In this document: positions 7,674 to 21,840 of the stretch, in pieces
Layout: every line of letters begins with the position of its first letter
Numbering within the stretch: position 1 is the stretch's first letter
Origin: Dehalococcoidales bacterium
GTDB lineage: Bacteria > Chloroflexota > Dehalococcoidia > Dehalococcoidales > RBG-16-60-22
Length of the DNA stretch: 64,000 nt
Direction of reading: 5' to 3'
NCBI GenBank assembly: GCA_034430495.1
Contig: DAOUEG010000048.1
Coordinates: forward strand, 709-64,708
Notes under the pieces: model-generated
The model's input: the letters and a program-made list of their open reading frames with translations, nothing else
Told to the model about the DNA's origin: nothing
Databases searched by the model: none
Program-made: the position numbers and the translations under genes

Positions 7674-10454
7674 TCAGGCGGCAGCGCCGACCGGCTGCGG
7701 CGGAAAAGCGAACTTGCTCTTGGACTCGATGACGATGTCCTCGTCCTTGGTATCCACGACGACGTAGGACACATAGGTGTTCTCGGCTATCTTGAGCTCC
7801 GGCACCTTGCCGCGGGTGCCCTTGTTTTTCCCGGCGCCCTTTTCGAGCTCCCTGATAATCTTCTCCACGTCCCACTTGATGCTCTTGGTGGAGTAGACCA
7901 CCAGCTTGTCGCCGTCCAGTTCCGCCTGGGTAATCTCCGGCAGCGTCTTGGGGGCGTCCTCGGGGGCGTCCGTCATGAGCCGGGCCGGGATTTCCCTGAC
8001 GGCGGCAAGCACCGCTTCCCGGATATCCGGGTTCTTGATGGTGGCCCTGACCTCGAAGACGCGGCTGAACACCTTGAACTCCTCCCGGAGCACGGCCTCG
8101 GAGAGCTTGTCCTCGACCATCGTCTGGATGACGCGGCGGAGCGGGCGGGCGCCGTAGACCTCGTCGTAGCCCTTGTCGCCGAGGAGGTCCTTGGCGGCGT
8201 CGGTCACGCTGAGCTTGATTTCCTTATCGGCGAGCTGGGTGCTGACGTTGGCCAGCATCAGGTCCACGATGGCGCGTATCTGCTCCTTGGCGAGCGGGTG
8301 GAAGACCACGGTGCCGTCTACGCGGTTGAGGAACTCCGGCCGGAAGGCTTTCTTCAGCTCCTGGAGCAGGTTGTCCTTCATGCGGTCGTAGCTCTGCTCG
8401 CGGGCCTTGGCCTGGTCCGAGCGCTGGGCGAAGCCGAGCGCGGTTCCCTTGCGGATGGTCTCGGCGCCGATGTTACTCGTCATGATGATGACGCTGTTGC
8501 GGAAGTCCACGCGGCGGCCCTTGGCGTCCGTCAGGTGGCCGTCGTCGAAAATCTGTAGCAGCAGATTGAAGACGTCCGGGTGGGCCTTCTCGATCTCGTC
8601 GAGCAGGATGCAGCTGTAGGACTTGCGCCGGACAGCCTCGGTGAGCTGGCCGCCCTCGTCGTAGCCGACGTAGCCGGGCGGCGCCCCGACGAGGCGGGAC
8701 ACGGCGAACTTCTCCATGAACTCGGACATATCAATGCGGATGAGGGCGTCCTCGCTGCCGAACATGAACTCCGCCAGGGCCCGGGCCAGCTCGGTCTTGC
8801 CGACGCCGGTGGGGCCGAGGAAGATGAAATTGCCGATGGGACGGCGCGGGTCCTTGAGGCCGGCGCGCGCCCGGCGGATGGCCTTGGAGATGGTGTCAAT
8901 GGCCTCGTCCTGGCCGACGATGCGCTCGTGGAGGACGTCTTCCATGTTGAGCAGGCGGCTCGTCTCGTCGTCGGAGAGTTGGACGACCGGCACGCCGGTC
9001 CACATGCTGACAACCTCGGTGACGTCGTCCTTGCCGACCACGACATTGTCCTGGTCCTGCTCGTTCCGCCACTCGTCTTCCATCTGCTGGGCCATTTCCT
9101 CGATGCGGGTCTCTTCGTCCCGCTTCTCGGCGGCCACGTCGTACTGCTGGGTGGTGAGGGCCTCTTCCTTTTCCTTGCGGATGTTATCGAGCTCAGCCTT
9201 CTTCTCCTTGAGCGTGAGGGGCATGGTGTAGTGCTTGATGCGCACGCGGGAGGCGGCCTCGTCAACGAGGTCAATGGCCTTGTCCGGCAGGAAGCGGTCC
9301 GGGATGTAGCGCGCCGCCAGGTTGGAGGCGGCGGCCAGCGCCTCGTCGCTTATCTTGAGGCGGTGGTGCTCTTCGTAGCGCTCCCGGAGGCCGCGGAGGA
9401 TTTGCAGGGTCTCGTCCACGGAGGGTTCCTCGACGAGGACCTTCTGGAAGCGGCGTTCCAGGCCGGCGTCCCGCTCGACGTACTTGCGGAAGTCGTCCAG
9501 TGTGGTCGCGCCGATGCACTGGAGCTCGCCGCGCCCGAGCGAGGGCTTCAAAATGTTGGCGGCGTCCACGGCGCCTTCGGCGGCGCCGGCACCGACCATG
9601 GTATGGAACTCATCAATGAAGATGATGCAGTTGCCGGCGGTCTTAATCTCTTCGATGATTTTCTTGAGACGTTCCTCGAACTCGCCGCGGTACTTGGTGC
9701 CGGCCACGAGCGAGCCCATGTCGAGGGCGATGAGCCGCTTGTCCGCCAGGGTCTCCGGCACGTCGCCGCTGATGATGCGGTGGGCCAGCCCTTCCACGAT
9801 GGCCGTCTTGCCGACGCCGGGCTCGCCGACCAGGGCAGGGTTGTTCTTGGTGCGGCGGCTGAGGATCTGGATGAGCCGCTCGATCTCGTTATGGCGCCCG
9901 ATGACGGGGTCCAGCTTGCCGGCGCGGGCGGCGGCGGTGAGGTCCGTGCCGAGCTGGTCGAGGGCGGGGGTGCGGCTGGAGCCGCGCGGCAGGCGCTGCT
10001 TGCTGGGGGTGCTCTGGGTCAGGATGTGGCCCACCTCGGCGCGGGTGCGTTCCAGGGTGATGCCGAAGCTGTCCAGCACGCTGGCGGCGACACCTTCGCC
10101 TTCGCGGAGGAGGCCGAGCAGCAGGTGTTCGGTGCCGATATAGTTATGGCCCATCTGGCGGGCCTCGTCAATGGCAAGCTCGATGACCTTCTTGGCGCGC
10201 GGGGTCAGGCCGGTCTCGCCGGTGCCCGGCTTCTCGCCCCGGCCGATGATGAACTCCACCGCCGAGCGTACCTTGTTGAGGCCGATGCCGAGGTTGGTGA
10301 GCACCCGGGCCGCCACGCCCTCTTCTTCCCGCACCAGCCCGAGCAGGATGTGCTCGGTGCCGATATAGCTGTGGTTCAGGTTGCGGGCTTCTTCCTGGGC
10401 GATGGTGAGGACCCGGCGGGCTCGCTCTGAAAACTTCTCAAACCTGCTGGCCAT
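7674..10454 (-). CDS. clpC: ATP-dependent Clp protease ATP-binding subunit ClpC (926 aa, with a C-terminal extension)
   Basis: Two N-terminal Clp repeats ([13 protein letters not shown] / [13 protein letters not shown]), Walker A motifs [15 protein letters not shown] and [15 protein letters not shown], and a UVR-like middle domain. Confidence 0.95.
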
Positions 10455-10595
10455 AAATCAATCCTGTGCGTCCACGCGAAACGGTGCTGCTATCCTCATG
10501 TTATAACAAAACCAAAAGTGACGCAAGCAAAGAATAGCCTGATTGTGCGTGGGGGGCGGCATGCATATTGGGGAGGGTCAGGAAGGGGGAATACC

Positions 10596-10763
10596 GAACA
10601 GGCAGAAATAGCAAAGCCCCCTGGCGGTGGCATATTTTCCACAAGGAGTCGCCCCCTCAGTATCGTCTGCGCTGAAGCGTTTCACTTCCGTGTTCGGGAT
10701 GGGAACGGGTGGGACCGCTCCGCTAAAACCACCAAGAGGCTTAAAGCTCTTGTCTGCCTGTTC
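10596..10763 (-). repeat. 11-bp inverted repeat bracketing the 5S gene (candidate precursor processing stem)
   Basis: GAACAGGCAGA at 10596-10606 is the exact reverse complement of TCTGCCTGTTC at 10753-10763. The two arms flank the 5S coding segment. Confidence 0.5.
10618..10736 (-). rRNA. rrf: 5S ribosomal RNA
   Basis: The minus strand reads CUUGGUGGUUUUAGCGGAGCGGUCCCACCCGUUCCCAUCCCGAACACGGAAGUGAAACGCUUCAGCGCAGACGAUACUGAGGGGGCGACUCCUUGUGGAAAAUAUGCCACCGCCAGG. This closely parallels the E. coli 5S core (CCCACCUGACCCCAUGCCGAACUCAGAAGUGAAACGC). The terminal helix I pairs. Ends are +/- a few nt. Confidence 0.95.
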
Positions 10764-10796
10764 AGTTGTTAAGGGTCGCTTTCACAACCAATGACT

Positions 10797-10825
10797 ATTC
10801 TAGCATACTTTTCCGCCGTTGAAAA
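10797..10825 (-). promoter_or_regulatory. Candidate sigma70-type promoter for the 5S rRNA gene
   Basis: Minus strand: TTTTCA, then 17 nt, then an extended -10 (TGC TAGAAT), ~55 nt upstream of the mature 5S 5' end. Confidence 0.45.
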
Positions 10826-11123
10826 GAGGGTAACGCGGTGCCCCTGCAAAGAGGTGAAAAAATCCTCCCACGCGCGGAAAACCCAGCATGGGTAGCTAGA
10901 ACCGCCCTTGACAACCCTGAGGACACATGCTAGGTTAGGAGAGGGTTTTTTCCGGACAGGCACAGTACGCTCCGGCACCACGCCGGAGCGCCTCCCGTTA
11001 CCGGCCACAGCGTGAACGGGCGCCTTACGGATGCCCCCGTATGATGATGGAATGGTAAACATCGCCGAAGTTCCCACCATACCGCCCGCTTCTTCCATGA
11101 AACTGCCGCGAGGTGACAACGAC

Positions 11124-11414
11124 ATGAGCATAGAGCTGGTTCACATCGGTTTCGGGAACATCATGGCGATGAACCGGGCTATTGCCATCGCCTCGCCGAA
11201 CTCCGCCCCCACCAAGCGCACCATCCACGAAGGAAAAGCCAGCGGCATGGTGATTGACATGACCAGCGGGCGGCGGACCAAGGCCGTCATCTTCACGGAC
11301 AGCGGGCACATTATCCTGGCGGCCCTGGCGCCGGAAACCATCGCCAGCCGCCTGCAATCGAGCCGCAACGGGGGTCTCCGGCAGGACTCCCACGACGGTG
11401 ACGATGAACCCTGA
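11124..11414 (+). CDS. remA: RemA/YlzA-family (DUF370) regulatory protein
   Basis: [77 protein letters not shown] is near-colinear with Bacillus RemA. Conserved remA-gmk arrangement. Confidence 0.85.
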
Positions 11415-12030
11415 ACCCGACCTCTCCTCGTACCTCAACCCCCCACCGCTCCTCGTCATTCTCTCCGGGCTGTCCGGCGCCGGCAAGGACGCCGTCCTGG
11501 CCGAGCTCCGCAAGGACGGCCCGCCCCTGGAAATCATCGTGACGATGACGACGCGCGCCCTGCGCCCCGGCGAGCGGGACGGCGCGCCCTACCACTTCAT
11601 TTCCCGGGACCGCTTTCTCGCCATGCGCGACGCCGGTGAGTTCCTGGAATGGGCCGAGGTCTACGGGAACTACTACGGCAACTCCCGGTCCGAGGTTAGG
11701 GCCGCCCTGGACGCCGGCAAGGACGTCCTCCTCAAGGTGGACGTTCAGGGGGCGGCCACCATCAAGCAGCTCGTGCCGGAAGCCATCGCCGTTTTCCTGG
11801 CTACGCCGACGCTGGCCATGCTGGAGGCGCGGCTGCGCAACCGCCGGACGGAATCCTCCTCAGACCTGGCGCTGCGGCTGAAGACGGCCGCCCGGGAGCT
11901 CGAACAGCTGCCGCGGTTCGACTACGTGGTGATGAACGACGAGGGCGGCATAAAGCAGGCCGCCGCGGACGTCCGCGCCATCATCACGGCGGAAAAGGGC
12001 CGTATCGGGCGGCGCCGCCCCACCGTCTGA
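11398..12030 (+). CDS. gmk: Guanylate kinase
   Basis: P-loop [27 protein letters not shown] and [11 protein letters not shown]. Start is GTG 11398 or ATG 11404. Confidence 0.9.
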
Positions 12031-12035
12031 CCCGG

Positions 12036-13055
12036 CTACGTCCAGAAATGGAGCAGCCAGGAGAAGATGTAGCCGAGCGCGCCGCAGATGGGGAAGGTGA
12101 GGATCCACGCGGCGACGATGTTGCCCGCAATCCCCCAGCGCACCGCCGAGAACCGCTCCGTGGCGCCGACGCCCATCGTCGAGGCGCTGATGAGGTGCGT
12201 GGTGCTGACGGGAATCCCGAAGGCCGAGGCGACCTCGATGACGGTGGCGGCGGAGGCCTGCGTGGTGAACCCCTGCACCGGCCGGAGCGTCGTGACCCGG
12301 GTGCCCATCGTCCGGATGACCTTCCAGCCGCCCATGGCCGTGCCCGTGCTGATGGCGACGGCCGGCACCAGGATGACCCACCAGAGACTGGCCGAGGCAA
12401 TCGAGAGCCGGTCCCAGATGGTGGGGTCGTTGAAGTAGACGACCATCGCCATGGCGATGACGCCGATGGGCATCTGGCCGTCGTTCTTGCCGTGGCTGTA
12501 GGCCATGAAGACCGTCGTCAGGTACTGGCCCCGGGAGAAGTTCCGGCGTATGGCGTCCGGCGCGGAGCGCCGGAACAGCCAGTAGATGGCTATCATCCCC
12601 GCGTAGCCGCCGGCGAACCCGAGCATCGGCGCGATGACCACCGCCAGCAGCACCGTTACCATGACGTTCCAGACGACGGCGTGGATGCCGGCGACGGCGA
12701 TGCCGGCCGCGGCCAGCCCGGCGATGAACCCGTGGTGGAGGCTGATGGGCAGGCCCATCCAGGTGGCGAGCGTGCCCCAGATGATGATGGAGGCCAGCGC
12801 CGCGATGACGGTGGAGAAGGAGATGGCGTCCGCCGCCAGGATGCCCTTGCCGATGGTATGGGCGACGGCGGTGCCGGTGCAGGCGCCGGCCAGGTTACCG
12901 GCGGCGGCGAGGGCGATGGCCGTCCGCGAGGAGAGCGAGCGCGCCCCGATGGCCGGCGCGATGGCGTTGGCGGCATCGTTGAAGCCATTGACGACGGCGA
13001 AGCCGATGGTCAGCAGGATGATGAAGATGAAGAGGACCAGCGACGAATCAGGCAT
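12036..13055 (-). CDS. pit: Inorganic phosphate transporter, PiT family
   Basis: Carries GFNDAANAIA and HGKNDGQ signature repeats. The real start is ATG at 13055 (MPDSSLVLFIF...). The upstream part of the 442-aa track ORF is non-coding-looking. Confidence 0.9.
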   Translation of the reverse strand: MPDSSLVLFIFIILLTIGFAVVNGFNDAANAIAPAIGARSLSSRTAIALAAAGNLAGACTGTAVAHTIGKGILAADAISFSTVIAALASIIIWGTLATWMGLPISLHHGFIAGLAAAGIAVAGIHAVVWNVMVTVLLAVVIAPMLGFAGGYAGMIAIYWLFRRSAPDAIRRNFSRGQYLTTVFMAYSHGKNDGQMPIGVIAMAMVVYFNDPTIWDRLSIASASLWWVILVPAVAISTGTAMGGWKVIRTMGTRVTTLRPVQGFTTQASAATVIEVASAFGIPVSTTHLISASTMGVGATERFSAVRWGIAGNIVAAWILTFPICGALGYIFSWLLHFWT

Positions 13056-13677
13056 GCTTGAGGGCCACTCCCTCGAGGACGTTGGCGACGTCCTCGGCGC
13101 GGTCCGTGGCAGACTCGAGGTGCTCGTAAATCTCGCGCCACTTGATGAGCAGGGCGATATCCGAGGTGTTCTCGAAGAGCTCCGCCATGGCGGCGCGGTA
13201 GACGCGGTCCGCCATGTTCTCCAGCCGGTTGAGCTCCACGCAGCCGGCCATGATGTTCTTGAGCTCCTTGCGGTGGCGCAGGCCGGAGACGGCCTTCTGG
13301 ACCTCCACGGCGCCCTTGACGATGATGCCGGCGAGCTCCTTGGCGCGGCCGGTGGGCTGGTCAATCTTATAGATGAACATGGCGTCCGCGGCGGAGTGGA
13401 TGAAGTCCATGATGTCGTCCATGGTGTGGGCGAGCAGGGCGATGTCCTCGCGGTCGAAGGGAGTGACGAAGGTGCGGTGGAGGAGGGAGATGATCTGGTG
13501 GGTGATGGTATCGCCCTTGTGCTCCAGCTCGGTAATCTCGGCGACGCGGCTGTCCACGAACTCCCAGGTGGTGAGCATTTCCAGGAGCTCCTCGGCCGCC
13601 TTCAGGATGTTCTCGGCGCTTTCCTCGAAGAGCTGGAAGAACTTGCTTTCCTTGGGGATAAAGGCCAGTCTCACCAT
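13048..13677 (-). CDS. DUF47-family (PhoU-like) PiT accessory protein
   Basis: MVRLAFIPKESKFFQLFEESAENI...ELEHKGDTITHQI...FDREDI... is the typical YkaA/DUF47 pattern. There is an 8-nt overlap with pit. Confidence 0.8.
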   Translation of the reverse strand: MVRLAFIPKESKFFQLFEESAENILKAAEELLEMLTTWEFVDSRVAEITELEHKGDTITHQIISLLHRTFVTPFDREDIALLAHTMDDIMDFIHSAADAMFIYKIDQPTGRAKELAGIIVKGAVEVQKAVSGLRHRKELKNIMAGCVELNRLENMADRVYRAAMAELFENTSDIALLIKWREIYEHLESATDRAEDVANVLEGVALKHA

Positions 13678-13813: not shown

Positions 13814-15205
13814 CTACTCCTCGCCATCGAGGCCGAGGGGTTCGTCACCGCCGTCATCGGGCGATTGGCGGCCGAGGGCCCGCTGCCAGATGGACTTGAG
13901 CCGGTCGGCCATCTTCTGCTCGTAACCGAGGCTGCCGGGGGTATAGAACTGCTTGCCCTTGAGGGAGTCCGGCAGGTGCTGCTGCTCGACGACGTGCTCC
14001 GGGAAGTCGTGGGCGTACTTGTAGCCCTCGCCGTAGCCCATCTCCTCCATGAGGGGGGTGGGGGCGTTGCGGATGTTCAGGGGGACGTCCTCGCTGGCGC
14101 CGCCCTTGATCTCCTCGCGGGCGCGGTTGTAGGCGGCGTAGAGGGAGTTGCTCTTGGGGGCGGTGGCCATATAGACGGCGGCCTGGGTCAGGGCCAGATT
14201 GGCCTCCGGCATGCCGATGAAGTGGACGGCCTGCTGGGCGGCCATGGCCTGGACGAGGGCCTGCGGGTCCGCCAGGCCGATATCCTCCGAGGCGAAGCGG
14301 ACGATGCGCCGGGCGATGTAGAGCGGGTCCTCCCCGTTCTCCAGCATGACGGCGAGCCAGTAGACAGCGGCGTCCGCGTCCGAGTCCCGCATGGACTTGT
14401 GGAGGGCGGAGATGAGGTCGTAGTGCTGCTCGCCGGCCTTGTCGTAGATAGCGGCGCGGCGCTGGAGGGCGTCCTCGATGATGGTGAGGCTGACGACGCG
14501 CTTGCCGCGCTCGTCCGGGGGGGTGCTCTGGGCGGCCGTTTCCAGCGTGTTGAGGGCGATGCGGGCGTCATGGTTGCACATGGCGATGAGGTGGCTGATG
14601 GCCTCCGAGGAAATCTCCACGTTGAGGGTGCCGATGCCCTGGAGCTTGTCCTTGAGGGCGCGCATGATGAGGACCTGTATCTCCTCCTCCGAGAGGGGTT
14701 TCAGCGGCAGGACGCGGGAGCGGGAGAGGAGCGGCGAGGTGACCTCGAACGAGGGATTCTCCGTGGTGGCGCCGATGAGGGTAATGGTGCCGTCCTCGAC
14801 GAAGGGCAGGATGACGTCCTGCTGGGCCTTGTTGAAGCGGTGGATCTCGTCAATGAAAAGGATGGTCTTCTGGAGGTGCACCTTGCGGCGCTCCTGCGCC
14901 TGCTGGATGGCCTTGCGGAGGTCGTTGACGGAAGCGCTGGTGGCGCTGATGGGGGCGAAGAAGGCGCCGGTGCTGGAGGCGATGATAAAGGCGAGGGTGG
15001 TCTTGCCGCAGCCGGGCGGGCCCCAGAAAATCATGGAGGGGATGCGGTCCGCCTCGATGGCGCGGCGGAGCACCTTGCCCTTGCCGATGAGGTGCTCCTG
15101 GCCCACGTAGGTATGGAGGCTGTTGGGGCGCATGCGGGTGGCGAGCGGGGCGCCGGCCAGGGCCTGCTGGTCGTCCTGGTGGTCGAACATATTCATGCTG
15201 CTCAT
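13814..15205 (-). CDS. rarA: Replication-associated recombination protein A (RarA/MgsA AAA+ ATPase)
   Basis: MRPNSLHTYVGQEHL, Walker A GPPGCGKTTLA, FIDEIHRFNKAQQD and GATTENPSFE. Confidence 0.9.
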   Translation of the reverse strand: MSSMNMFDHQDDQQALAGAPLATRMRPNSLHTYVGQEHLIGKGKVLRRAIEADRIPSMIFWGPPGCGKTTLAFIIASSTGAFFAPISATSASVNDLRKAIQQAQERRKVHLQKTILFIDEIHRFNKAQQDVILPFVEDGTITLIGATTENPSFEVTSPLLSRSRVLPLKPLSEEEIQVLIMRALKDKLQGIGTLNVEISSEAISHLIAMCNHDARIALNTLETAAQSTPPDERGKRVVSLTIIEDALQRRAAIYDKAGEQHYDLISALHKSMRDSDADAAVYWLAVMLENGEDPLYIARRIVRFASEDIGLADPQALVQAMAAQQAVHFIGMPEANLALTQAAVYMATAPKSNSLYAAYNRAREEIKGGASEDVPLNIRNAPTPLMEEMGYGEGYKYAHDFPEHVVEQQHLPDSLKGKQFYTPGSLGYEQKMADRLKSIWQRALGRQSPDDGGDEPLGLDGEE

Positions 15206-15301
15206 CGCCGGCCTCCTTCCCGGTTGCCGCCGGTCAATCCAAGGCTATTGTGGCACAAAAGGAGGGGACTGTCCAGCGTATTTTGTCGCGTTTTGGTGAG
15301 G

Positions 15302-15925
15302 CTAAATAGTACCACGGATGATGGTGACGGTGCCGAAAAAGGCGCGCTTCTCCGCGACGACGGTGATGCCGGCCTCGCGGACGAGGGCGGCGAGGTCAAT
15401 AAAGGCGAAGGACGGGTAGTACTTGCTGTCGATGGTGCGGATGAAGCGGTAGGCGAACCAGCGGCGCAGCCCCCGCGGGGGGAGGTAGTAGTCCACCACG
15501 AAGACGGTGCCGCCGGGGCGGGTGACGCGGCGCATCTCCGCGAGCACCTTGGGCCGCATGTCCGGGGGCATATCATGGAGGGCGAAGGCGACGTGGGTGA
15601 CATCGAAGCTGGCGTCCTCAAAGGGGAGCGCGGCGGCATCCCCTTCCACCAAAGTGACGTTACGGTAGCGGTCCCTGGAGCGGGCGACGGCGAGCATGTC
15701 CGGGGAGAGGTCCAGGCCGGTGACGATATTGCCCCGCCGGGCCAGGGCGAACGCCTGACGGGCGGTGCCGGTAGCGACATCCAGCACCTTGACCTGCGGG
15801 CCGGGCGGCACGAGGGCGGCGACCTGTTTCTCCACGACCTTGAACGGGATGGTCACGAGGTCGTAGTAGGCGTGATGCTTCTTGAAGAACGCCTTGATGT
15901 AGGCGTAGTCGGCGGATTGGTTCAT
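15302..15925 (-). CDS. Class I SAM-dependent methyltransferase
   Basis: VLDVATGTARQAFALA (motif I), LPFEDASFDVT and RPGGTVFVVDY. ATG 15925 avoids the 41-nt overlap with the upstream gene. The longest ORF reaches 15967. Confidence 0.8.
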   Translation of the reverse strand: MNQSADYAYIKAFFKKHHAYYDLVTIPFKVVEKQVAALVPPGPQVKVLDVATGTARQAFALARRGNIVTGLDLSPDMLAVARSRDRYRNVTLVEGDAAALPFEDASFDVTHVAFALHDMPPDMRPKVLAEMRRVTRPGGTVFVVDYYLPPRGLRRWFAYRFIRTIDSKYYPSFAFIDLAALVREAGITVVAEKRAFFGTVTIIRGTI

Positions 15926-15926
15926 A

Positions 15927-16400
15927 TTAGAAGGTACGGCCGGGTTGGTCGTCGTTTTCTCCGCCAATCTTGCGCCATCGCTCCCGGTTAGGAAACGTCA
16001 GGACGAGAGCGGCCATAGAAACGAGGATAAAGGGCAGTGAAATATACACTTCCGCACCGAGGACGGCCAGAATGAGGCCGTAGATGCCTATCGCTTCAAA
16101 AAGTGAGGCGCGCACTATAATAAAGTTCAGGGCGTCCGCCGACGCATTACCGGAGCCACGTATGAACCTGGTGAGGACCGATGGAAAGCCGGCACCGAGC
16201 AGTAAGGTAATGACAGCGAGGACCGCCAACGCTATTTCGATGAGCTGAAAGTCAGGGTCGGCGGGGTCAAAGATGCCGCCTATCACGTTCGGGACGAGGA
16301 GGTAGGCAATAAGGAGGTACATCAACCCGGCCGTCAGCATGAGGGAATACATGATCTGGGCATTCTTGAGAGTACGTCCCGATCCAAACAGCTCCAGCAT
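15927..16400 (-). CDS. Hypothetical integral membrane protein
   Basis: Contains four predicted hydrophobic helices. No recognisable family. Packed tightly in a co-directional gene string. Confidence 0.5.
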   Translation of the reverse strand: MLELFGSGRTLKNAQIMYSLMLTAGLMYLLIAYLLVPNVIGGIFDPADPDFQLIEIALAVLAVITLLLGAGFPSVLTRFIRGSGNASADALNFIIVRASLFEAIGIYGLILAVLGAEVYISLPFILVSMAALVLTFPNRERWRKIGGENDDQPGRTF

Positions 16401-16430
16401 TCGAGTTTTCCTCCTCCGCGATAACGATTG

Positions 16431-17003
16431 CTACCTGAGGATGATATCGTCCAGCTTGCGCTTGGGCACGTGGTGGACGCCGTTGGCATCCCGCCAGTAC
16501 TTGATGCTGCCGTCCGGGGGGAGCTCCTCCAGCACGACCTCTTCCTTGGGGCGGCCGAGGGAGAGGACGAGCAGGATCTCATACCGGGCGGGGATATCCA
16601 GCGCGGCCCGCAGCTCCGGCTGCTTGATGCTGCCGTGCATGCAGCCGCCGAGGCCCCGCTCCCGGGCGCCGAGGAAGATGCTCTGGGCGGCGATGCCGTG
16701 GTCGCAGAACCAGTTTTTGGCTATCTCGGTATCCGCCAGCACGACGATGTAGGCGGCGGGGCGCTCGCCCTCCGCGGGGCCGGGCCAGTCCGTCAAATAG
16801 CCGGCCCAGCCGAGGGTAGCGAAGACCCTGGCGCGCTCGGCGGCGTCCGTGACGGTGAGGTACTTGAGGGACTGGAGGTTGGCGCCGGACGGGGAGAGGC
16901 GGGCGAGGTCAATGAGCTCGCGGAGGGTCTCTTTGGAGACGGGGACGTCCTCGTAGAAGCGGCGGCAGGTGCGGTTGGATTTGACGAGGTCTCGTACTGA
17001 CAT
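16431..17003 (-). CDS. Nitroreductase-family flavoprotein
   Basis: RTCRRFYEDVPVSKETLRELIDLARLSPSGANLQ is the canonical nitroreductase N-terminal motif. Confidence 0.8.
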   Translation of the reverse strand: MSVRDLVKSNRTCRRFYEDVPVSKETLRELIDLARLSPSGANLQSLKYLTVTDAAERARVFATLGWAGYLTDWPGPAEGERPAAYIVVLADTEIAKNWFCDHGIAAQSIFLGARERGLGGCMHGSIKQPELRAALDIPARYEILLVLSLGRPKEEVVLEELPPDGSIKYWRDANGVHHVPKRKLDDIILR

Positions 17004-17013
17004 GGGTGACTCC

Positions 17014-18342
17014 TTACTCTTTGTGGCGTACCACCTCGAACCGGTAGAGGTTGACGGGCTCGTCCGGGTGGATGCCGGCCTTCTGGCGGCAGATAGCGAT
17101 TTGCTGCTCCACGGTGTCCACGCCCTCGAGGTCCGGCAGGAGCAGGCCGCGCCGCCAGCCGGACTCCACGATGAGCCCGTACCGCTTGGGGTCGAGGGTG
17201 CTCATGTCATCCACGGGCACCGGGCTGGTGAGGACGTCCACGGTGTACTCCAGGTCGGCCAGCTCCTCCTCGCGGACGGGATGGAAGCGGGGGTCCTGGG
17301 TGGCGGAGCTGATGGCGTTGGTGATGATTTCCCAGGCGATGTCCGGCTGCTGGGGCTCGAAGGTGCCGATGCAGCCTCGCAGCGAGCCGTCCTTCTTGTG
17401 GATGGAGACGAAGACGCCGGCCTTTTCCTGGAGTTCCGGGGTGGGGTCTTCCGGGGCGTCGAGGCGGCGGCCCTCCTTGACGAGCGTCTCCACGGTGGCT
17501 CGGGCGAGGCCCACGAGGGGGTCGGTGGGGGACTTCGGGATAATGACGCCGGCGTAGCCGACGACGGCATCGCGGTCGCCGGTGGCGTCGCCGCTCGTGG
17601 CGTACTTGACCGGCTCCCCGGCGGCGGCGCCGAGCTCTTTCGCCACGGTAATGAGGACCATGGCCGGGCCGAAGGCGCACATGGTGATGTGGAGCTCGCG
17701 GTAGCGGCGGTCCAGCTCCGCATCGTCGAGGGCGACGATGGCCTCGACGGCCTTATAGTCCTTCTCCCGGGCGGTGGCGTCCGGCTCGTAGTGGGTCATG
17801 TCCCCGCTGGCCAGGACCAGGGCCTCGCGGCCGGTCTCGCTGAGGGTGCGGGCGATGTCCCGCCCGATTTCCCGGTAGAGGGCCGCCGGGGCGAGGGACA
17901 GGATGATGGGGACGATTTTCACGTCCGGCTTGAGGTACTGGAGGAAGGGGAGCTGTATCTCCACGGCGTGCTCCTCGCGGTGGGCGGCGGTGTCCGCCTC
18001 CAGGTAGCCGGAGTGGTTGATGAGCTCGAAGGCGAGGGCCTCGTCCACCTCCACGTCCCCGAGGGGGGTACGCCAGGTGCCTTCCGGCATGACGGAAAAC
18101 GGCTTGCCCCGGCCGCTGTGGGACGGCCCGATGATGATGACGGTATCCGTGAGGCGGACGCGGGAGATGGTGGCCCCGGCCACGGCGCCGGAGTAGATGT
18201 AGCCGGCGTGCGGCACGAGGAGCCCGATGGCCTCCGTCCGGGCCGCGTCCGGGTCCACCAGGGCGGCGACCATCTTCTTCAGTTCCGAGGCGGTGCCGGG
18301 ATAGAACGACCCGGCGGCGTACGGCTGACGTACCATTTTCAT
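17014..18342 (-). CDS. Fusion of AmmeMemoRadiSam system protein B (Memo-like) and protein A (AMMECR1 domain)
   Basis: The N-terminal half has the Memo motifs AAGSFYPG and [14 protein letters not shown]. The C-terminal half has AMMECR1 motifs [19 protein letters not shown] and RRGLLLPD. Confidence 0.85.
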
Positions 18343-19373
18343 CCCTCCGGCGGGGCGGGATTGCGGAAATTGAGCTCCGTCCCGCAGACCTGGCAGGCTG
18401 AACCCTTCAGGTTGACGAGCTCGGTCAGGTAGCCCAGCCGCCGCACGACGAGGCTGCCGCAGTTATAGCAGCGGGTGGACTCGCTCTCGTGGCCGGGGAC
18501 GTTCCCGGCGTAGACGAACTTGAGGCCGGCTGCCCGGCCGATATCGCAGGCCTTGTCAATGGTGGTGACGGGGGTGGGCGGCAGGTGGCGCAGGTTGTGG
18601 TGGGGCTGGAAGCGGGTGACGTGCCAGGGGGTGAGCTCGCCGAGCTCGGCGACCATCCAGCGGGCGATGCCTTCGAGCTGCTCGTTATCGTCGTTCATGG
18701 TGGGGATGATGTTGGTGACCACCTCCACGTGCATGTTCCAGACCTGCCTGGCGCGGACGGTGACCTCCAGAATCTCGTCCCACTGGGGCACCCCGGCGAT
18801 GTCCTTGTAGAACTCGTCCGAGAAGCCCTTGATGTCCACCCGCCAGGCGTCCAGGTAGGGGCCGATGGCGTCCAGGGCGGCCGGCGAGGCGTAGCCGTTG
18901 GTGACGTAGGCGGTGTAGAGGCCGGCTTCCTTCGCCAGCCGGGCGGACTCCAGCGTGTGCTCGAACCAGATGGTGGGCTCGTTATAGGTCCAGGCCATGC
19001 CCTGGCAATCGTACTGCCTGGCCAGCTTGACGGAGGCTTCCGGCGTGAGGGTGCGGCAGGCTTTCTCGAGGGCCTCGCCGTCGGCGGTGGAAATCTCCCA
19101 GTTCTGGCAGTGACGGCACCGGAAGTTGCAGCCGATGGTGCCGAGCGAGAAGCAGAGGCTGCCGGGGTAGAAGTGGAAGAGGGGTTTTTTCTCGATGGGG
19201 TCCGCCGCCAGCGAGGAGACCCGGCCGTAGTTCAGGTTGTAGAGGGTGCCGCCCTCGTTGCGGTACATCCCGCAGGCGCCGAGCTTGTCCGGGTTGATGC
19301 GGCAGTGCCACTGGCAGGTGTGGCACTGGACCCGGGAACCCGGCAGTTTCTCGTAGATGGCCGCCTCGTGCAT
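18339..19373 (-). CDS. AmmeMemoRadiSam system radical SAM enzyme
   Basis: [12 protein letters not shown] auxiliary Cys motif, the radical-SAM [11 protein letters not shown] (CxxxCxxC) motif, and a C-terminal CYNCG...CQVCG. Confidence 0.85.
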
Positions 19374-19447
19374 GGTACCCCCTCAACGGGCATTGTAACA
19401 CCGGGGCGGCGGCCTGTACAGGACTTAACTCACCCGGGGCGGGAGCG

Positions 19448-20656
19448 TCAGATGATGGCCTTGAGGAACCACGAGTAATCGTAGTTGAAGACCGGCGAGA
19501 GGATATAGAAGGACACCAGATGGAGGACGATGACGAGGACGACGAAGCCGATGGCGACCCAGCGGAGCTTGCCCGTCTTACGGCGCTTGAAGAAGCCGAT
19601 GAGGTCCCCCAGGCCGAGTGCCATGCCGAGGCAGACGGCGCCGATGGTGGGGTAGAAGTAGTACGGGTAGGTGGCCCGGTCGGTGATGATATCAGCGGGA
19701 ATCCAGATGAGGTAGGTGCCGATGAACCAGGCCGCGCCGAAGAGCCCGGCCTCGCTGCCGCGGATGGCCTTCCAGACCAGATAGAGGAAGGCGGGAATGG
19801 CGAGCGCCCAGACGGTGAAGCTGATGGCGGAGGTATAGTGGGGGTCAACGTAGTAGGCCATCGGCTTGTAGCCGATGAGCCACGACCAGGGCCGGCTCAG
19901 CGCGGGATGGTTCACGTTGGCGAAGGTGAGGCTGCCGGAGAGCTGGAGCATCTCCTTGATGCGGGCGATGGGGTCCAGCGCCGTGCTGAAATGGCGGGTG
20001 ATGACCCAGGCGAAGAGGATGAGCCCCTCCACGAAGGTCACGATGGAGAAGAGGGCGGTCAGGCTGAACCACCAGGAGTGTTTCTGGCGCTTGCTGAACA
20101 GCCAGTGCATGAAGACGACCGGCGCCGCCAGGGCACCGTCCAGCTTGGCCAGGGCGCTCAGGCCGATGCCGACCCCGGAGAGCAAGTACCGCTTGCTGAC
20201 GTAGAGCAAAAAGGCGGCCAGCATGAGCGTCACGTAAAACACGTCCAGCATGGCGACGTGGTTCTGGACGAAGGAGGCGTTCTCGAAGGCGAGAAAGAAG
20301 GTGGCCAGATTGGTGGTGGTACGGCCCATCTCCAGCTTGCGGCAGAGGAAGTAGAAGAGGACGATGCCGGCCGTGCCGAAGAGGATGGGGAAGACGCGCC
20401 AGCCCCAGGGGTTATCGCCGAAGGCCTCGATGCCGCCGACGATGATGAGCTTGGCGAGGTCCGGGTGCTCCGGGCGCTCGGTCGTGTGCTGGGTCATGAT
20501 GACGCGGGCGTCCCTGACGTAGTGAATCTCGTCCAGGATGGTTTCCGTGGGAGTGGTGATGATGGCGAAGTGCATCGCCAGCGTGAGAGCGACGATCACG
20601 CAGAGGAAGAAGTGCTCCCAGCGTATCACCCGCAGGACGCGCGCTTTCACTTCCAC
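19448..20656 (-). CDS. GT39/PMT-family polyprenyl-phosphate-mannose-dependent protein mannosyltransferase-like membrane protein
   Basis: Polytopic membrane protein with a loop-1 DEIHY (Asp-Glu) motif typical of PMT/GT-C enzymes. It overlaps the upstream PPM synthase gene by 10 nt. Confidence 0.7.
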   Translation of the reverse strand: MEVKARVLRVIRWEHFFLCVIVALTLAMHFAIITTPTETILDEIHYVRDARVIMTQHTTERPEHPDLAKLIIVGGIEAFGDNPWGWRVFPILFGTAGIVLFYFLCRKLEMGRTTTNLATFFLAFENASFVQNHVAMLDVFYVTLMLAAFLLYVSKRYLLSGVGIGLSALAKLDGALAAPVVFMHWLFSKRQKHSWWFSLTALFSIVTFVEGLILFAWVITRHFSTALDPIARIKEMLQLSGSLTFANVNHPALSRPWSWLIGYKPMAYYVDPHYTSAISFTVWALAIPAFLYLVWKAIRGSEAGLFGAAWFIGTYLIWIPADIITDRATYPYYFYPTIGAVCLGMALGLGDLIGFFKRRKTGKLRWVAIGFVVLVIVLHLVSFYILSPVFNYDYSWFLKAII

Positions 20657-21729
20657 GTCCAGTTACGGTTGATGAAGTAGTTCCAGAGGAAGGCGATGAC
20701 GATGCCGATGAAGTCCGACAGGACATCGAACACGCCGAAGGCGCGCGTAAAGAGCAAAAAGACGCCGGTCTGGATGCCGGCCCCGGCCAGCGAGATGAAG
20801 TTGAACTTGAGCAGCCGGCCGATGAAGCTCTTGCCGGCGCGGCGGCTGCGGAAGGTGACGGTATCGTTGAGGATGAAGTTGGTGATGATGGAGACCTCGA
20901 TGCCGATGAGCACGGCCACCCAGTCCATGCTGCCGGACAGGCCGGTCAGGCGCGAGAGCAGCGTGTAGACGCCGAGGTTGACGCCGGTGCCGATGAGGCC
21001 GACGATGATAAACTTGACGAAGAAGCCCATCTCTCCGGTGCGCACCATGAGGCTGAGGATGTGGCGCAGGTACTCTATCTGGGTGCTCGCCTTGAGCTTG
21101 GAGGCGCCGGCGGAGCGGTCCTCGAAGACGTAGGGGACCTCCACCACGTTCTCGAAGCGGCCGAGCAGCAGGATTTCCATGGCGATCTTGTAGCCGATGG
21201 GCTTGAGGACGTCCGGGTCCACCCGGTCCCGGCGGAACATGAAGAAGCCGGACATGGGGTCCTTGACGCGGCGGACGGCCGGCAGCAGCACGTGGGCGAT
21301 GAGCGAGGCCCCCCGGGAAATTATCTTGCGGAGGGTGCTCCAGTGGGGGACGCCGCCGCCGGGTACGTAGCGGCTGCCGAAGGCCATGTCCGCGCCGGAT
21401 TCGATGGCTTTGACGAGGTCCGGCAGCTTCTCCGGCGGGTGCTGGAGGTCCGCGTCCATGACGCCGATGATGGAGCCCCCGGCGTGGCGGATGCCGTGGA
21501 TGACGGCGGTGGAGAGGCCGCGCTCCTCGGTGCGGACGAGGAGGCGGACGGGGAACTCGCCGGCGAGGGAGTTGACGATGTCAATGGTGCCGTCCTGGCT
21601 GTTATCGTCCACGACGATGACCTCGTAGTCATACCCGGCGAGGGCGGCGTGGATACGGGTGAGGAGCGGCCGGACGTTGTCACGCTCGTTGTAGGAAGGC
21701 ACGATGATAGAGACTTTTTCCGTGGTCAC
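20647..21729 (-). CDS. Polyprenol-phosphate mannose synthase (GT2, DPM1/Ppm1-like) fused to a GtrA-like membrane domain
   Basis: VSIIVPSYNERDN, VIVVDDNSQDGT, DADLQHPPE and DPMSGFF are GT2 motifs. The C-terminal ~130 aa has 4 TM helices ending in WNYFINRNWTWK (GtrA-like). Confidence 0.8.
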   Translation of the reverse strand: MTTEKVSIIVPSYNERDNVRPLLTRIHAALAGYDYEVIVVDDNSQDGTIDIVNSLAGEFPVRLLVRTEERGLSTAVIHGIRHAGGSIIGVMDADLQHPPEKLPDLVKAIESGADMAFGSRYVPGGGVPHWSTLRKIISRGASLIAHVLLPAVRRVKDPMSGFFMFRRDRVDPDVLKPIGYKIAMEILLLGRFENVVEVPYVFEDRSAGASKLKASTQIEYLRHILSLMVRTGEMGFFVKFIIVGLIGTGVNLGVYTLLSRLTGLSGSMDWVAVLIGIEVSIITNFILNDTVTFRSRRAGKSFIGRLLKFNFISLAGAGIQTGVFLLFTRAFGVFDVLSDFIGIVIAFLWNYFINRNWTWK

Positions 21730-21840
21730 AATGACTCCCGGGGGGACCGGCAGGTCCCCGGCCGCGTTCCACTAGATTATAACCTCTTTACGAATTGGTT
21801 TCAAAAGATTATAATAGAGTGGTTCCTTCCGAGTATATTT

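Follow-up and report, generated by a model that had tools for sequence, protein, structure and literature searches.

The window analysed here is a 64,000-nt stretch of DNA from an uncultured Dehalococcoidales bacterium (assembly GCA_034430495.1, contig DAOUEG010000048.1). The subject of this study is a gene cluster on its minus strand, at 15302-19373, which is built around a radical S-adenosylmethionine (SAM) enzyme (rSAM) and a single polypeptide that joins a Memo-like module (protein B) to an AMMECR1 module (protein A). These two genes are best explained as a standard, self-contained AmmeMemoRadiSam system, and the three genes that follow them, encoding a nitroreductase-family flavoprotein (NR), a small membrane protein (TM) and a class I SAM methyltransferase (MT), as lineage-specific cargo rather than dedicated partners. 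A probability of about 75% is assigned to this joint reading. Memo and AMMECR1 proteins are conserved from archaea to humans and have been linked to disease.

A complete AmmeMemoRadiSam system

According to its family matches, the locus is a complete AmmeMemoRadiSam system: its proteins pass the cut-offs of all three NCBIfam models (TIGR04335, TIGR04336 and TIGR04337, typed hypoth_equivalog), its genes are immediate neighbours on one strand, and their products keep the catalytic motifs. Nothing essential sets it apart from other systems of this type; the placement of B and A on one polypeptide is common in Dehalococcoidales and in many other lineages. The rSAM protein matches TIGR04337 with 290.5 bits (cut-off 220) and PF04055 with 71.3 bits. 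Its CX3CX2C motif (C82/C86/C89) is invariant in the 57 homologues over which cysteine conservation was scored, and so are an N-terminal set, C17/C20/C24/C34 (Cx2Cx3Cx9C), and a C-terminal CxxC...CxxC set, C302/C305/C327/C330. These extra sets could be auxiliary cluster or zinc sites. C123 is likewise invariant.

The Memo part of the fused protein matches PF01875 over residues 7-266 (235.5 bits) and TIGR04336 with 298.2 bits (cut-off 26), and the AMMECR1 part matches PF01871 over residues 278-438 (162.4 bits) and TIGR04335 with 136.9 bits (cut-off 99). The PHAGY, GPSH, SxDxxH and xxC positions of human MEMO1 (3bcz/7kq8) are matched in the alignment by H45, H75, D181, H184 and C222, and all five of these residues are invariant in a conservation alignment of 29 sequences, which also covers the AMMECR1 motif residues. 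This His/His/Asp/His/Cys set corresponds to the putative metal-site residues of MEMO1. In the AMMECR1 part the RGChG motif is present as R322-G-C-I-G326, containing Cys324, and the DxRa motif as D350-P-R-F353, both of them invariant in the same alignment. The two motifs were defined, and proposed as the AMMECR1 active site, by Balaji & Aravind 2007 (PMC2034487). The AMMECR1 module also aligns with the structure of PH0010 (PDB 1vaj) at E = 1.9e-21, with LRGCIG aligned. The AlphaFold model of the fused protein (mean pLDDT 91.2, pTM 0.71) is confident for the fold of each domain and moderately so for how the two pack against each other; the linker between the modules has about four residues.

Sequence homology thus links the fused protein to human MEMO1 (E = 4e-15) and to the archaeal AMMECR1 homologues PH0010 (E = 2e-21) and MM0484 (1zq7). 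The eukaryotic and archaeal proteins differ from it in being stand-alone, and eukaryotes are not known to have a partner radical SAM gene.

A genuine fusion, separated from the split state by one codon

An assembly or sequencing frameshift joining two genes would also yield one long ORF (open reading frame), but the probability of such an artefact is practically negligible. The identical 440-aa fused protein is found in three independent assemblies (GCA_964462855.1 and two JGI metagenomes), a 90%-identical fused orthologue is encoded in another metagenome-assembled genome (MAG; L001/L164), and the ORFs of relatives with separate genes already share one frame. The sequence-only reading was therefore right to describe a single protein joining both modules. 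The best 120 database homologues are all of about 438 aa and contain both Pfam domains, and many of them already carry the JGI annotation "protein B/protein A".

The distribution of the fusion was followed in a scan with one genome per species, in which at least 579 relatives were found and the best 80, all of them Dehalococcoidales-type MAGs, were analysed. Genes in these loci were called with a per-locus codon-usage model, the DNA being 65% GC. B and A are fused in 70 of the 80 species. The fusion is best read as a fixed evolutionary state, and it is the majority one in Dehalococcoidales. Of the 150 best representatives of sequence clusters at 50% identity, 84 have the architecture B-A, 61 B alone, four A-B and one rSAM-A-B (P0229, 822 aa). 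These counts, together with the publication of the fusion in 2007 (PMC2034487), make the fusion less rare than is implied by the earlier statement that the two modules are normally separate genes. The cluster representatives with other fusion architectures are P0229, P0191, P0198, P0199, P0264 and P0159, the last of which (861 aa) carries B-A behind a 400-aa N-terminal extension.

In nine of the 80 species B and A are split (L021 at 10004-11326, L024, L026, L028, L029, L031, L033, L046 and L063). The two ORFs lie in the same frame, with a stop followed directly by ATG or GTG near residue 271, for example ...KKGGA*MHP..., where the asterisk marks the stop. As nothing but this stop and start lies between ORFs that are already in frame, the difference between the fused and the split state comes down to one junction codon, with no frameshift. 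In the split loci the KKGG codons that close B also supply the Shine-Dalgarno sequence, GGAGG, and a Met is retained at the junction position in many fused orthologues. Two types of split junction exist, KKGGx* and KGGGG*, which suggests from sequence that more than one fusion or fission event has occurred. In the one locus left of the 80, L056 (1-1200), an in-frame stop lies about 54 residues into the matched Memo part, at about query residue 94, where a pseudogene or a sequencing error is possible.

AMMECR1 fusions with a "ring-opening dioxygenase" (Memo), along with a persistent radical SAM neighbourhood, were reported by Balaji & Aravind 2007 (PMC2034487). The three components, the fusion and the RGChG and DxRa motifs of that report are all shared by the present locus, which adds only a new host lineage and the single junction stop that relates fused and split states. 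PMC7159879 likewise cites Burroughs et al. 2019 for "Memo-Ammecr1 systems". The fusion, the neighbourhood and the open functional question are already documented, and the exact protein is present in public databases.

The variable slot downstream of the system

In all 66 loci that are informative on this point, the gene immediately before the fused one is rSAM. Downstream, a co-directional RarA gene is found in 49 of the 80 loci, at a distance from the B-A gene of 86-7141 nt (median 1224), and the interval between the two, 15206-17013 in the window, is a variable slot. An NR orthologue occupies it in six of the 63 loci that are informative for NR and MT, and also in L001; an MT is present in three of the 63, and no homologue of the TM protein was found in the 80 genome loci. 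Elsewhere (loci L003-L080) the slot holds an SRPBCC protein, a GNAT acetyltransferase, Zn_ribbon_2, RHH+ParE toxin-antitoxin pairs or a DUF2779/Cas4-like nuclease. A conserved 97-aa protein of unknown type is also among the cargo. Since RarA is unrelated in function and yet keeps its place far more consistently than the three window genes do, gene order in this region appears to mirror synteny more than function.

The NR gene was also followed in 80 metagenome loci that carry orthologues of 60-69% identity. The fused gene lies nearby in four of the 50 loci that include at least 1.5 kb upstream, and the remaining loci have many different neighbours and a GC fraction of 0.35-0.66. NR orthologues often stand behind a pair of proteins of about 900-1000 aa (L086, L099, L126, L131, L139, L149 and others), and other recurrent NR contexts occur in metagenome contigs as well. 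Some relatives have two nitroreductase-family genes near the system: L060 (8223-8885 and 11813-12382) has one on either side, before rSAM and behind B-A, and L057 has a tandem pair (11894-13171).

Homologues of the TM protein are confined to the closest relatives of the window organism, in which the order NR-TM-MT-RarA is kept. The NR-TM-MT block recurs only where the fused protein is at least 88% identical, that is, in the L001/L164 MAG (90%) and in L165 (88%). The TM gene evolves far faster than the adjacent genes, its L165 homologue (1917-2387) being 52% identical, as against 83% for NR, 76% for MT and 88% for the fused protein; a further homologue lies in L164 at 137-610. L165 also has an extra class I methyltransferase (667-1299) between B-A and NR, which shares 41% identity with the window MT across 122 residues.

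The three cargo proteins belong to broad or very narrow families. NR matches only the generic PF00881 (74 bits) and stays under the cut-offs of the named NCBIfam equivalogs for BluB (46.5 vs 150 bits) and the NfsA type (39.2 vs 223). MT matches only the generic class I domains PF13649/PF08241 and is UbiE/CpaM-like, falling under the cut-offs for CpaM (NF043040, 91.2 vs 180) and UbiE/MenG (TIGR01934, 86.1 vs 158.35). The TM protein has about four hydrophobic segments in a hydrophobicity scan and no Pfam, NCBIfam or PADLOC match even at E = 10; its family is very narrow, with six clusters in 5.8 billion proteins. The label "ATP synthase subunit c", which JGI gives to one TM homologue, is supported by no model. 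A defence-system reading of the slot genes was also rejected, as PADLOC returned only a weak generic rSAM match (pVip, 24 bits) and methyltransferase-domain matches.

It had been suggested from the sequence alone that NR, TM and MT are accessory or tailoring functions. In that case their substrate would be the product of the system, within a five-gene biosynthetic operon, and the arrangement in the window would fit: the genes are on the same strand with gaps of 10, 30 and 1 nt, the sole promoter-like site precedes rSAM, the L001/L164 MAG and L165 retain the block, and NR stands right behind the fused gene in L054, L061, L062, L081 and L082. This explanation is nevertheless considered unlikely, given the counts of NR, MT and TM in the slot, which elsewhere is filled by toxin-antitoxin pairs, a GNAT, an SRPBCC protein or a nuclease, and given that NR orthologues have unrelated surroundings in about 90% of cases and that RarA is far more conserved in position. 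The comparison of neighbourhoods for recurring nitroreductase or methyltransferase partners, proposed together with the suggestion, thus went against it, at least among the 80 Dehalococcoidales loci. A narrower version, in which one lineage recruited NR, the fast-evolving TM and the UbiE-like MT to reduce or methylate the system product at the membrane, is quite unlikely. If it were true, the recruited NR-TM-MT block would be a natural "extended pathway", the extra chemistry of which could reveal the substrate class.

Several points weigh against the preferred reading of a self-contained system with unrelated cargo. NR, TM and MT are packed closely behind B-A, and no promoter-like or convincing terminator-like site separates them. 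The three closest lineages retain this block, NR reappears in the slot in another sub-clade that is farther removed, and the handful of metagenomic NR genes closest to it (68-69% identity) adjoin the fused gene, so that a loose or facultative functional link between NR and the system may exist. The neighbourhood sample covers Dehalococcoidales only, as the best 80 of at least 579 relatives. Finally, the pTM of the fused protein gives only moderate confidence in the packing of its domains, and the mechanism proposed below is inferred in its entirety.

The upstream slot, the syntenic backbone and transcription

Two glycosyltransferase genes, GT2-GtrA and PMT-like, precede the rSAM gene in the window. 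They form a variable upstream slot that is not conserved with the system: 18 of the 80 loci have a PMT-like gene ahead of rSAM and 11 have GT2, and elsewhere there is an arylsulfotransferase-like gene or nothing. The system is located within a housekeeping syntenic backbone, with a DRTGG protein upstream and RarA, PhoU_div, PHO4 and Gmk downstream, and has variable slots on both sides. In the window, ten genes run in the same direction on the minus strand from 21729 to about 12036 (GT2-GtrA, PMT-like, rSAM, B-A, NR, TM, MT, RarA, PhoU_div and PHO4). The sequence-only reading had described a six-gene co-directional string; the shared direction stands and the number does not, as the interval holds five ORFs, found where that reading had placed them, and the full run ten genes.

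Consensus matches to promoters were found on the minus strand upstream of GT2-GtrA, rSAM, RarA and PhoU_div. That of rSAM (Table 1) falls within the 74-nt gap between the PMT-like gene and rSAM and is a candidate starting point for a transcript that runs from rSAM to MT; the same scan gave no promoter-like or convincing terminator-like minus-strand site between rSAM and MT. Terminator-like sites are not above chance (four, as compared with 4.6 in shuffled sequence). The lack of an internal promoter-like site, together with gaps of 2, 10, 30 and 1 nt, suggests one five-gene transcript from rSAM to MT, and NR, TM and MT are probably co-transcribed with the system in the window genome. Two strong promoter-like sites of opposite orientation are also present at 21776-21815, in the divergent gap between GT2-GtrA and a plus-strand DRTGG/AAA_26-type gene: the minus-strand site is TTGAAA-17-TATAAT, with 11/12 matches, and its plus-strand counterpart has 10/12.

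It could be argued from these neighbours that polyprenyl or isoprenoid lipids are what the system modifies, in a functional tie with the GT2-GtrA and PMT-like (polyprenyl-phosphate-sugar) glycosyltransferases and with the UbiE-like MT. Both glycosyltransferase genes immediately precede rSAM in the same orientation, and the PMT-like gene recurs in the loci counted above. Memo contexts are also said to have been linked to nucleotide-base and isoprenoid modification in the 2019 work of Burroughs et al. The proposal is very improbable, however, as the pair is missing from most loci, where the slot is otherwise filled or empty, a separate promoter-like site stands between the PMT-like gene and rSAM, and the association is limited to one sub-clade, which is consistent with plain synteny.

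Proposed mechanism

No experimental study of the bacterial system was found in the literature searched, and no paper in it gives a substrate, in agreement with the earlier statement that the substrate and product are unknown. Published prediction points to a base of RNA or of a nucleotide as the substrate; in PMC2034487 the proposal is an uncharacterised RNA-base modification. The model put forward here for the self-contained system proposes that an rSAM resembling the PFL activases is translationally coupled to one B-A polypeptide. The rSAM would cleave SAM to a 5'-deoxyadenosyl radical, and this radical would initiate the reaction of a substrate located in the cleft of AMMECR1, beside the invariant cysteine of RGCIG. 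The cleft and this cysteine would bind the substrate and relay the chemistry, and the Memo metal site (His/His/Asp/His/Cys) would perform a coupled redox or ring step. The linker of about four residues and the occurrence of A-B and rSAM-A-B fusions speak for joint action of the three modules as one complex, which would work on a third-party, conserved cellular substrate.

A different role for the rSAM is conceivable from the example of glycyl-radical enzyme activases or anSME-type maturases. After TIGR04337, the rSAM scores best against the NCBIfam models of PFL-activating and glycyl-radical-activating enzymes (E = 1e-11 to 1e-12), its nearest characterised radical SAM relatives. The rSAM could accordingly be imagined as an activase for which the fused B-A protein is itself the substrate, with a radical or modified residue at the Gly or Cys of RGCIG; the AMMECR1 cysteine is invariant and has been described as exposed in the cleft (PMC2034487). 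This role is judged quite improbable. The rSAM scores far under the activase cut-offs (45.3 vs 231.75 bits for TIGR02493 and 43.8 vs 174.35 bits for TIGR02494), it differs from the activases in its extra invariant N- and C-terminal cysteine clusters, and the locus has no glycyl-radical enzyme partner. The rSAM-A-B triple fusion (P0229) imposes a 1:1 covalent stoichiometry, which is more in keeping with a multi-domain enzyme than with an activase that works catalytically.

Gene calls and feature coordinates

The junction between the rSAM and B-A genes reads GGAGGGATGAAAATG, with a Shine-Dalgarno sequence 6 nt ahead of the second ATG (18336). This second ATG is also the start in homologues and in the public gene call, and its use leaves a 2-nt gap after the rSAM stop. 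The 4-nt ATGA overlap described earlier requires the first ATG (18342) as the start, and both the position of the Shine-Dalgarno sequence and the starts of the homologues indicate that this codon is probably unused. The fused 442-aa ORF adjoining rSAM is confirmed in either case, and the two genes are tightly coupled whichever start applies. The presence and order of NR, TM and MT also stood as described, as did the gaps of 10 nt between B-A and NR and of 30 nt between NR and TM. The MT start was revised: it is most likely the ATG at 15925, 1 nt past the TM-gene stop, rather than the TTG at 15967. The features are collected in Table 1.

Table 1. Features of the AmmeMemoRadiSam locus and its flanks in the window
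Feature	Coordinates	Strand	Basis
AmmeMemoRadiSam radical SAM enzyme (rSAM), 344 aa	18339..19373	-	TIGR04337, PF04055
Fused protein B-protein A, 442 aa from first ATG, more likely 440 aa from ATG 18336	17014..18342	-	ORF and families
Memo-like (protein B) module, residues 5-268	17539..18330	-	TIGR04336, human MEMO1 alignment
AMMECR1 (protein A) module, residues 276-438	17029..17517	-	TIGR04335, PDB 1vaj
Nitroreductase-family flavoprotein (NR), 190 aa	16431..17003	-	PF00881
Small membrane protein (TM), about 4 TM helices, 157 aa	15927..16400	-	Hydrophobicity scan
Class I SAM methyltransferase (MT), 207 aa from ATG 15925	15302..15925	-	PF13649/PF08241
RarA/MgsA AAA+ ATPase, far edge of variable slot, outside the system	13814..15205	-	PF12002
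PMT-like glycosyltransferase gene, upstream slot	19448-20656	-	Family match
GT2-GtrA glycosyltransferase gene, upstream slot	20647-21729	-	Family match
Promoter-like site TGTACA-17-TACAAT with TG	19392..19420	-	Consensus scan

Implications for the Memo and AMMECR1 families

A bacterial gene context pointing to the substrate of Memo and AMMECR1 would be valuable; the present locus offers none, as NR, TM and MT, if they are cargo, are no guide to the chemistry of the system. For a system that sits in a housekeeping backbone and has no other conserved partner, a core function in the cell is a better fit than one in specialised metabolism. The A-B and rSAM-A-B fusions support one physical complex of the three modules, and a further, likewise limited outcome of the analysis is that one junction stop codon separates the fused from the split state.

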